A stretch of DNA of 29,196 nt, from contig CBDAQI010000006.1 of NCBI GenBank assembly GCA_965198945.1, positions 1 to 29,196 on the forward strand. The letters run 5' to 3'. Numbering within the stretch: the first letter of the stretch is position 1; every line of letters starts with the position of its first letter. The translations under genes and the position numbers were made by a program. This DNA is from Thermodesulfobacteriota bacterium. GTDB lineage: Bacteria; Desulfobacterota_D; UBA1144; Nemesobacterales; Mycalebacteriaceae. Under the pieces are notes generated by a model, which saw nothing but the letters and a program-made list of their open reading frames with translations, did no database searches and was not told the origin of the DNA. Shown here piece after piece: positions 9,146 through 10,066 of this stretch.

Positions 9146-10066
9146 TTAGTTTTCCTCCCTGACCCTCCAGAAAGACGGGAATTTAGGTTTGCCGGTTTTT
9201 GTGAATCCCCTGTATTTGTAGGTAATCAAACTTCCCATGGGAGGCGAAACGGAATTCAAACTCATTCCCGGAGTCCTGTATTTGTAGGTAATCAAACTTC
9301 CCATGGGAGGAGGTTTTTTACGCTCCTTATCGGTAAATCCCGTGCCGATTTTGAAGCGAACGCCATCCGGAGTTTCCACTGTCAAACTTCCCAGCATTCA
9401 CTTAAACTTCCCCTTTCCGGGATTATGGGCAACCACGATCGCTTCGTCATCATAAAATTTTTTGAGTTTTAAAAGATCACCTCCCACGGCGGTCTTATAA
9501 AAAGAATCCTTTTTTTGCAGCATCAGCCCTTCCCCGCCGGCTTTTGTCACACCGTCAAGTCTTGCCATTAACTTACTGACACTGCGAACTCCGGACTGCT
9601 TGACTTTTCCAAGATACGGAGACTCGGACTTTGCGATAATTTCTTTCAGTCTTTTATACCGCTTTTGGAACTCGCCTCCGTGCCCGGGAAGGTCAAAAAC
9701 CATATATTTGATTTTTCTCCAGCCGGAATGCGGCTGTTTGCGGCGGACTATTGAGGATGTCTCTTCAAAACTGTTTCTGCCCGCCCACAGCTCTCCGTCC
9801 ATCGGCTCAGGCGGGAACCCGTCAGTAAACCAATGCGGGGCGGCAAACACATTCCCTTGTCGGGAAATGAGTTTTTCACAGTCCCAGTAAGCGCGGATGC
9901 CGTCCAGTTTTTCGCTGACAAGGTATTTTGAAACATCAACGCCGTCTTTATAAAAATCCGCGGGCTTAAGGGCCGGAGCAGAAGCGGCGGCATCCGTCGG
10001 CAAAACGACCGCAAAAACCGCGACAATAAAAACTGCCAAACAGATTTTCATATCTTGGAAACGCAA
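9146..10066 (-). pseudogene. Minimal ATP-dependent DNA ligase with signal peptide (LigE-type), disrupted
   Basis: Signal peptide, EKLDGIRA adenylation motif, EGLML, KLKK, OB domain. In-frame TGA at 9398-9400 where Gly is expected (GKGKFK*MLGSL), plus a 66-bp in-frame insertion in the OB domain. Confidence 0.85.
9209..9310. repeat. 36-bp direct repeat / 30-bp unique insert / 36-bp direct repeat (CRISPR-unit geometry) inside the ligase gene
   Basis: CCTGTATTTGTAGGTAATCAAACTTCCCATGGGAGG at 9209-9244 and 9275-9310, identical; insert CGAAACGGAATTCAAACTCATTCCCGGAGT at 9245-9274. Confidence 0.95.

Follow-up and report, generated by a model that had tools for sequence, protein, structure and literature searches.

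A repeat-spacer unit of CRISPR geometry in a DNA ligase gene of a Thermodesulfobacteriota bacterium, a probable natural off-target integration by a type II-C system

The interrupted ligase gene

The stretch of DNA analyzed here (the window, 29,196 nucleotides) is contig C6 of genome G000, an assembly of 1.39 Mb in 14 contigs. Its minus strand carries a gene for a periplasmic-type ATP-dependent DNA ligase, divided over two open reading frames at 9398–10066 and 9146–9397. The 5′ part (9401–10066) encodes an adenylation domain with the KLDG lysine motif (PF01068, E=1.4e-7) and a hydrophobic N-terminus that, in our reading, resembles a signal peptide. The 3′ part (9146–9397) encodes the OB domain, which matches PF14743 in two stretches (E=9.6e-31) and contains an in-frame insertion of 22 codons. 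An in-frame TGA at 9398–9400 (GKGKFK*MLGSL), located from the list of reading frames and an alignment with congeners, splits the gene at a position where all five congeners encode Gly or Ala. With this codon and the insertion, the gene in the window lacks the single open frame spanning adenylation and OB domains; the congener genes are intact. Because the in-frame TGA occurs together with the insertion, the gene is probably a pseudogene. Beside it, on the plus strand at 7255–9141, lie a gene for a DNA methyltransferase (PF01555/PF01170, 398 aa) and a 227-aa ORF that matches no Pfam family, possibly a restriction-modification pair. Elsewhere in the window, 26707–27144 holds a 175-nt exact direct repeat with a spacing of 263, the longest close repeat of the genome.

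The insertion in the OB domain has a regular composition. Two 36-mers that are 100% identical, at 9209–9244 and 9275–9310, start 66 nt apart and enclose a 30-nt insert at 9245–9274. The 36-mer (exact repeat family D1) starts with CCTGTA on the plus strand, with TGT at positions 3–5, and its length is that of the native CRISPR repeat of this genome. An exact repeat of 36 nt cannot have arisen by chance. At the protein level, the unit adds 22 in-frame codons, reading ...PPPMGSLITYKYR TPGMSLNSVS PPMGSLITYKYR GF.... The exact 36-bp duplication around a 30-bp insert and the 22 codons added to the gene are thus as the original prediction, made from the window alone, had described them. The prediction had also pointed to the dyad ends of the duplicated site (CCT...AGG) and to an internal palindrome, TCCCATGGGA. 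Both are present in the sequence but carry no weight; they are missing from the other two off-target sites described below, and we dropped them as recognition features.

Comparing the gene with its counterparts in the genus shows that the site is empty in all five congeners. Each has a single copy of the 36-mer, and the pieces of the DNA alignment (about 70% identity) overlap on it. The congener ligases (5/5) have frames free of internal stops, with one PPxGSxITYKY motif and a 22-column gap opposite the insertion. Removing 66 bp therefore restores the canonical end of the OB domain, as had been claimed, and the proposed comparison of alleles in relatives finds the target in single copy throughout. 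The 5′ part of the gene is 50–60% identical to the intact open frames of the congeners, which measure 282–335 aa from stop to stop, an upper bound on protein length. We also aligned 77 more distant homologues, taken from metagenomes. In 61 of them the 22 inserted columns are empty, and in the other 16 they contain 3–8 unrelated residues; a duplication at these columns was found in none of the 77. Among the 80 loci of the metagenome scan there was no ligase allele of the same species, the best relative being 62% identical.

The donor of the insert and the native type II-C system

The 30-nt insert has one exact second copy in the genome (30/30), on the opposite strand of another contig, at C1:54057–54086. 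The identity ends at the borders of the insert, save for one extra base attributable to chance. The earlier statement that the insert has no match elsewhere is therefore true of the window, and does not extend to the genome. The C1 locus lies inside a gene for a 668-aa CCG/4Fe-4S protein that is 89–91% identical to its orthologues in two congeners (G002 and G003), and the copied stretch encodes a conserved part of this protein. Because the stretch belongs to a conserved gene, the copy went from C1 to the ligase gene. Template switching from adjacent DNA, named in the original prediction as a finding that would speak against it, is contradicted by the match, which is 30/30 and lies in a conserved gene of a different contig. 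The insert has no match in the viral, phage or plasmid collections searched.

The genome encodes a CRISPR-Cas system of the matching dimensions. A 10-kb locus on contig C12, identified by Pfam searches on its ORFs, contains cas9, cas1 and cas2, in the type II-C arrangement; neither csn2 nor cas4 was found among its ORFs of at least 90 aa. The array adjoins cas2 and consists of five 36-nt repeats (GTTGTG...TTACAAT) and 30-nt spacers (4/4), giving a period of 66. Cas1 (302 aa, PF01867) and Cas2 (109 aa, PF09827) are full-length relative to their counterparts in G002 and G003, with 80–86% identity, and both genes appear intact. The cas9 frame is broken at an A8 run, giving two overlapping ORFs in different frames (C12:~101766–101842; L002:5766–5842), one with HNH and RuvC_III domains and the other with the Cas9 helical lobe. 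The best solved relatives of this Cas9 are Cas9 proteins of about 1050–1095 aa. The frameshift could stem from an error of assembly or reflect a real inactivation, a distinction that bears on whether a PAM guided spacer capture here. The former may apply because an indel error appears elsewhere, at window position 11186, behind which contigs built from reads of run X1 (see below) carry an extra G, marking an indel error or a variant in the assembly. A tracrRNA anti-repeat is found at C12:~102847. The four spacers of the array (C12:98057–98356) are just two sequences that alternate as S1, S2, S1, S2; the doubling is due either to a real duplication of 132 nt or to an effect of assembly. S1 and S2 have no exact match in viral contigs, and allowing up to 9 mismatches revealed none elsewhere in the genome.

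The same system is present in relatives. Near-identical 36-nt repeats occur in three of the five congeners, in arrays of 25 (G002), 20 and 4 repeats, with 46 spacers of 28–33 nt and a mode of 30. For the spacers of the G002 and G005 arrays, a search of 101 genomes from the order returned array-to-array and anti-repeat matches only. No protospacer of a native or congener spacer, and hence no PAM to set beside the flanks of the C1 donor, emerged from these searches. All four genomes with an array have a conserved flank on the cas2 side, following ...ACAAT. The far end is variable: in G002 the repeat there is truncated, in G000 the sequence resembles the repeat weakly (20/36), and G003 has a variant repeat. 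Because the cas2-side flank is conserved and the far end is degenerate, we place the leader on the ACAAT side. Similar arrays of 36-nt repeats are found in several families of the order (e.g. G014, G030, G061 and G012), and the type II-C system is therefore widespread in the lineage. The search of source genome and relatives that the prediction had proposed thus finds a 36/30 system in the lineage, with cas9, cas1, cas2 and such an array in G000 and near-identical repeats in three congeners.

Units of the same geometry elsewhere and their target borders

The geometry of the ligase unit is rare in the genome. Among 51 exact direct-repeat pairs (at least 18 nt, spacing up to 400 nt), a spacing of 66 is seen only at the native array, at the ligase gene and at C11:97351. 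We also scanned the whole of G000 with 36-nt windows at offsets 40–130, accepting pairs of at least 29/36 identity. Six pairs lie at offset 66, four in the native array, one on C6 and one on C11. Other offsets gave only coding tandem repeats (at offsets 42, 84 and 102) or imperfect singletons, and outside tandem repeats every perfect 36/36 pair in this range is at offset 66. No older, diverged unit was found in G000 at offsets 64–68 with at least 29/36 identity.

The second perfect unit, at C11:97351–97453 (L004:3351–3453), consists of a 37-nt exact repeat with a 29-nt gap, which equals 36+30 with one ambiguous base. The ORF that contains it in frame is an ORFan of 173 aa, adjacent to the tmRNA gene. 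The genome has no second copy of the insert, and neither viral contigs nor the phage and plasmid collections gave a match to it. Searches with the host ORF gave no DNA match among 40 relatives and no credible match at the protein level among 100 genomes of the order, and it matches no Pfam family; because it has no relatives, an empty site is not demonstrable for this unit. Duplications of arbitrary length across the genome had been named as a finding that would count against the prediction. The other two-copy repeats are indeed of arbitrary length, but the C11 unit has the native geometry, and it is a further unit of the 36/30/36 kind for which a genome scan had been proposed.

A third site comes from a congener. 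In G003, a scan at offsets 64–68 outside the array returned one pair at offset 66, in ftsZ (C1:53629–53730 of that genome; L180:14029–14130). The block is exactly 36 nt long with 29/36 (81%) identity at offset 66, and identity in both flanks is 22%. The FtsZ protein of G003 carries 22 extra codons, VVPNDKLCEENT-NQNQHSAVEQ-VVPDDQPDEDNT, and six of the seven substitutions between the two copies are nonsynonymous. The insertion is absent from the five other genomes of the genus, by alignment in G000, G001 and G002; in G004 and G005 the FtsZ protein match splits at the place of the insertion. It is likewise absent from the 13 nearest FtsZ proteins of a large collection, the closest of which is 81% identical and comes from a source named Candidatus Mycalebacterium sp. 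We regard this unit as a candidate for an older off-target event that may have been retained in an essential gene. It is a candidate and not a demonstration, because imperfect singleton pairs in G003 also fall at offsets 91, 105, 121 and 128, and the chance of one such singleton landing at offset 66 is estimated at about 0.05. A tiled scan of G002 found no pair at offsets 64–68 outside the array. Because this genome, with its array of 25 repeats, has no off-target unit, such integration is not general in the genus.

The three sites share one border with the native repeat. They start with CCTGTA (ligase, plus strand), GTTGTT (C11, minus strand) and GGTGTT (second copy in G003 ftsZ, plus strand), and the native repeat starts with GTTGTG or, read on the opposite strand, with ATTGTA, so that TGT at positions 3–5 is common to the sites and both native termini. 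Of 36-mers drawn at random from the genome, 2.8% have TGT at these positions in one orientation or the other. When such sequences were grouped at random in threes, 45 of 20,000 triplets shared any native 3-mer at the same position, a figure to be read with the fact that the TGT motif was picked after the data were seen. The opposite borders and the flanks of the sites have nothing in common, and the pseudo-repeats as a whole have little identity to the native repeat (12–16/36). Inspection by eye of the ligase and C11 sites, including the flank on the TGT side, found no counterpart of the native leader start (AGCT/ACTT...CCTCAA). The alignment of native repeat and leader with the ligase site, proposed in the original prediction, therefore agrees in the terminal TGT and in little else: the low identity and the lack of a leader-like flank do not fit. 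The shared TGT suggests that the target border resembles the repeat end recognized by the integrase (nnTGT).

Origin and fate of the ligase unit

The ligase unit has the geometry of the native repeat-spacer unit, an identified donor on C1, empty sites in 5/5 congeners and a second unit on C11; both of its junctions are found in the reads of run X1, and cas1 and cas2 appear intact. Based on these observations, we consider it very probable that the unit is a natural off-target full-site integration by the cell's own type II-C Cas1-Cas2, with a self-derived spacer, and that it is recent, the 66-nt scar being perfect. The original prediction of a natural fossil of off-target Cas1-Cas2 integration is upheld to this degree. 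A plausible course of events would begin with the capture of 30 nt of the host chromosome as a prespacer, within the conserved CCG/4Fe-4S gene on C1. Cas1-Cas2 would then attack the ligase gene at a border resembling the repeat terminus (nnTGT), and the second strand would be attacked 36 bp away, at a distance set by a ruler of the enzyme and not by sequence. Gap repair would copy the 36-bp target to both sides of the spacer, and the resulting 66-bp unit would appear as a 22-codon in-frame insertion in the OB domain. What we infer here is the identity of the agent, which attack came first and what TGT contributes; the case for Cas1-Cas2 is an argument from its footprint. Against it count the low identity of the pseudo-repeats to the native repeat, the split cas9 frame and the lack of any such unit in G002.

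Could the unit have been left by a repair process unrelated to CRISPR, for example templated filler DNA in a staggered break, with the total of 66 nt a coincidence? The self-derived insert in the ligase gene would fit such a process. Against it, the same partition into 36+30 recurs in the ligase and C11 units and in the ftsZ candidate, and equals the native repeat and spacer lengths; no unit of another geometry was found at offsets 40–130; and the sites carry the terminal motif of the native repeat. We therefore consider repair an improbable origin.

We also asked if the unit could be an artefact of assembly or sequencing, in which a chimeric join placed 30 nt of C1 into the ligase gene. The assembly does contain probable indel errors, namely the missing G at 11186 relative to the X1 contigs and the A8 frameshift in cas9. 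Two runs of one study, X1 and X2, contain the stretch, and were available as Logan unitigs built independently of the deposited assembly; X1 is possibly the same sample as the assembly, which lends the artefact some room. In X1, both adjacencies of repeat and insert are present in junction unitigs, at 9215–9274 (depth 9.4) and 9246–9304 (depth 9.5), which supplies the read-level confirmation proposed earlier. These unitigs have 30 letters on each side, one below the 31-letter rule for bridging. The 36-mer forms its own node with a depth of 23.2, compared with 15 and 13.7 in the flanking contigs, close to the doubling expected of a sequence present twice. The unitigs break at a 31-mer common to C1, and the loose ends read into the C1 flanks. 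An X1 contig over 9281–12000 has no other letters, and the TGA that splits the ligase is thus present in the reads. In X2 the region has a depth of about 2, and the listed pieces do not span the site. The depth of the junctions relative to the flanks (9.4–9.5 versus 13.7–15) is a weak hint of cells free of the insertion, within sampling noise at such coverage; an empty allele would contribute no new 31-mers to X1. A chimera, moreover, would not yield an exact 36-nt duplication of the target, nor do so twice with the same geometry. An artefact is therefore very improbable, more so than repair.

Two further origins have next to no chance. Tandem duplication or replication slippage of a 66-nt segment, with later divergence of its middle, is a frequent origin of direct repeats in coding DNA, and G000 has coding tandem repeats at offsets 42, 84 and 102; the 36-mers here are identical, yet the insert is unrelated to the flanks and matches a distant locus at 30/30, and slippage does not import foreign sequence. 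A footprint of a transposable element or MITE, left after excision, would account for a target-site duplication, the hallmark of transposition, but known transposon target duplications are, to our knowledge, 2–15 bp and not 36, and the insert, which lacks terminal inverted repeats, comes from a conserved gene of housekeeping type and has no further copy in the genome beyond the C1 donor.

Off-target integration by Cas1-Cas2 is thus the preferred reading, and the unit it left is apparently a scar and not a working array. The calculated energy of pairing with the tracrRNA is −41.7 kcal/mol for the native repeat and −7.0 and −9.5 kcal/mol for the ligase pseudo-repeats, compared with −10.0 ± 3.4 kcal/mol for random 36-mers; over all pseudo-repeats, the values range from −7 to −14.8 kcal/mol. 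The ligase pseudo-repeat lacks the TACAAT −10 box that type II-C repeats contain, ending in ...ATACAGG / ...GGGAGG, and the unit has a single spacer. Because neither tracrRNA pairing nor a −10 box is available to the pseudo-repeats, no crRNA, no guiding of Cas9 and no autoimmunity would be expected. The self-derived spacer would be harmless, tolerated because it cannot guide Cas9. The idea that the unit might act as the seed of an array does not survive these results.

Off-target integration giving rise to ‘neo-CRISPR’ loci has been described for the E. coli type I-E system (Nivala, Shipman and Church 2018, Nat Microbiol). As described in papers that cite it, type I-E Cas1-Cas2 was over-produced there and oligonucleotides were supplied; a citing preprint describes the natural evidence as only circumstantial and from two other species. 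The ligase unit resembles the E. coli case in its spacer-length insert, its repeat-length duplication of non-CRISPR DNA and the use of the cell's own Cas1-Cas2; unlike it, the ligase case is natural, belongs to type II-C (Cas9), has an identified donor, is in frame and bears no sign of array activity. For the II-A Cas1-Cas2 of Streptococcus thermophilus, the accessible portion of Kim et al. 2019 (PMC6895254) reports that the sequence at one border of the 36-bp repeat guides the first attack and a ruler places the second, and that off-target sites, in in vitro and plasmid assays, resemble the recognized junction. A one-sided TGT motif with an exact 36-bp duplication fits this rule of border plus ruler, in so far as that portion describes it. 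In contrast to the S. thermophilus system, which has Csn2, the system here is II-C, with the leader probably on the ...ACAAT side near cas2 and no leader-like flank at the off-target sites. In Neisseria meningitidis, according to the sections available of the report (PMC12477760), the II-C system has the same subtype, locus layout and crRNA promoters inside repeats as the present one; when cas9 is deleted, acquisition drops modestly and the PAM is lost, acquisition increases when crRNA is missing, and it is reported there at the array only. Our search of the literature, mostly outside subscription journals, found no natural off-target integration in a Cas9 (type II) system, and documented natural off-target cases of any kind were scarce in it.

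We can speculate about conditions that favor such events. In G000, the short array with its two distinct spacers or the broken cas9 might have raised the rate of mis-integration. There is a hint that crRNA-poor cells could mis-integrate more often, in that the arrays of G000 and G003 are small and G002, with 25 repeats, has no unit; this too is speculation.

Off-target integration is known mainly from over-produced type I-E proteins and from work in vitro, and the ligase locus is an unusually clean natural record because donor, target, empty site and native array can all be read within a single genome or its genus. The ligase, C11 and ftsZ sites offer three natural targets from which the minimal recognition by the integrase, nnTGT with a 36-bp ruler, may be read. 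The ligase locus further suggests that the chromosome of the host itself is sampled during adaptation, with self spacers surviving where no crRNA can form. Because the type II unit of 66 bp is exactly 22 codons, the reading frame is preserved: mis-integration adds 22 in-frame codons with no frameshift, and the outcomes would range from gene damage, as in the ligase, to a tolerated loop, as in the ftsZ candidate. Whether such insertions, by keeping the frame and adding peptide loops, can be retained and make CRISPR adaptation a source of protein indels is a tentative proposal to which we would give somewhat less than an even chance. The preservation of frame by type II scars and the ftsZ candidate are, in our view, the points most worth following.
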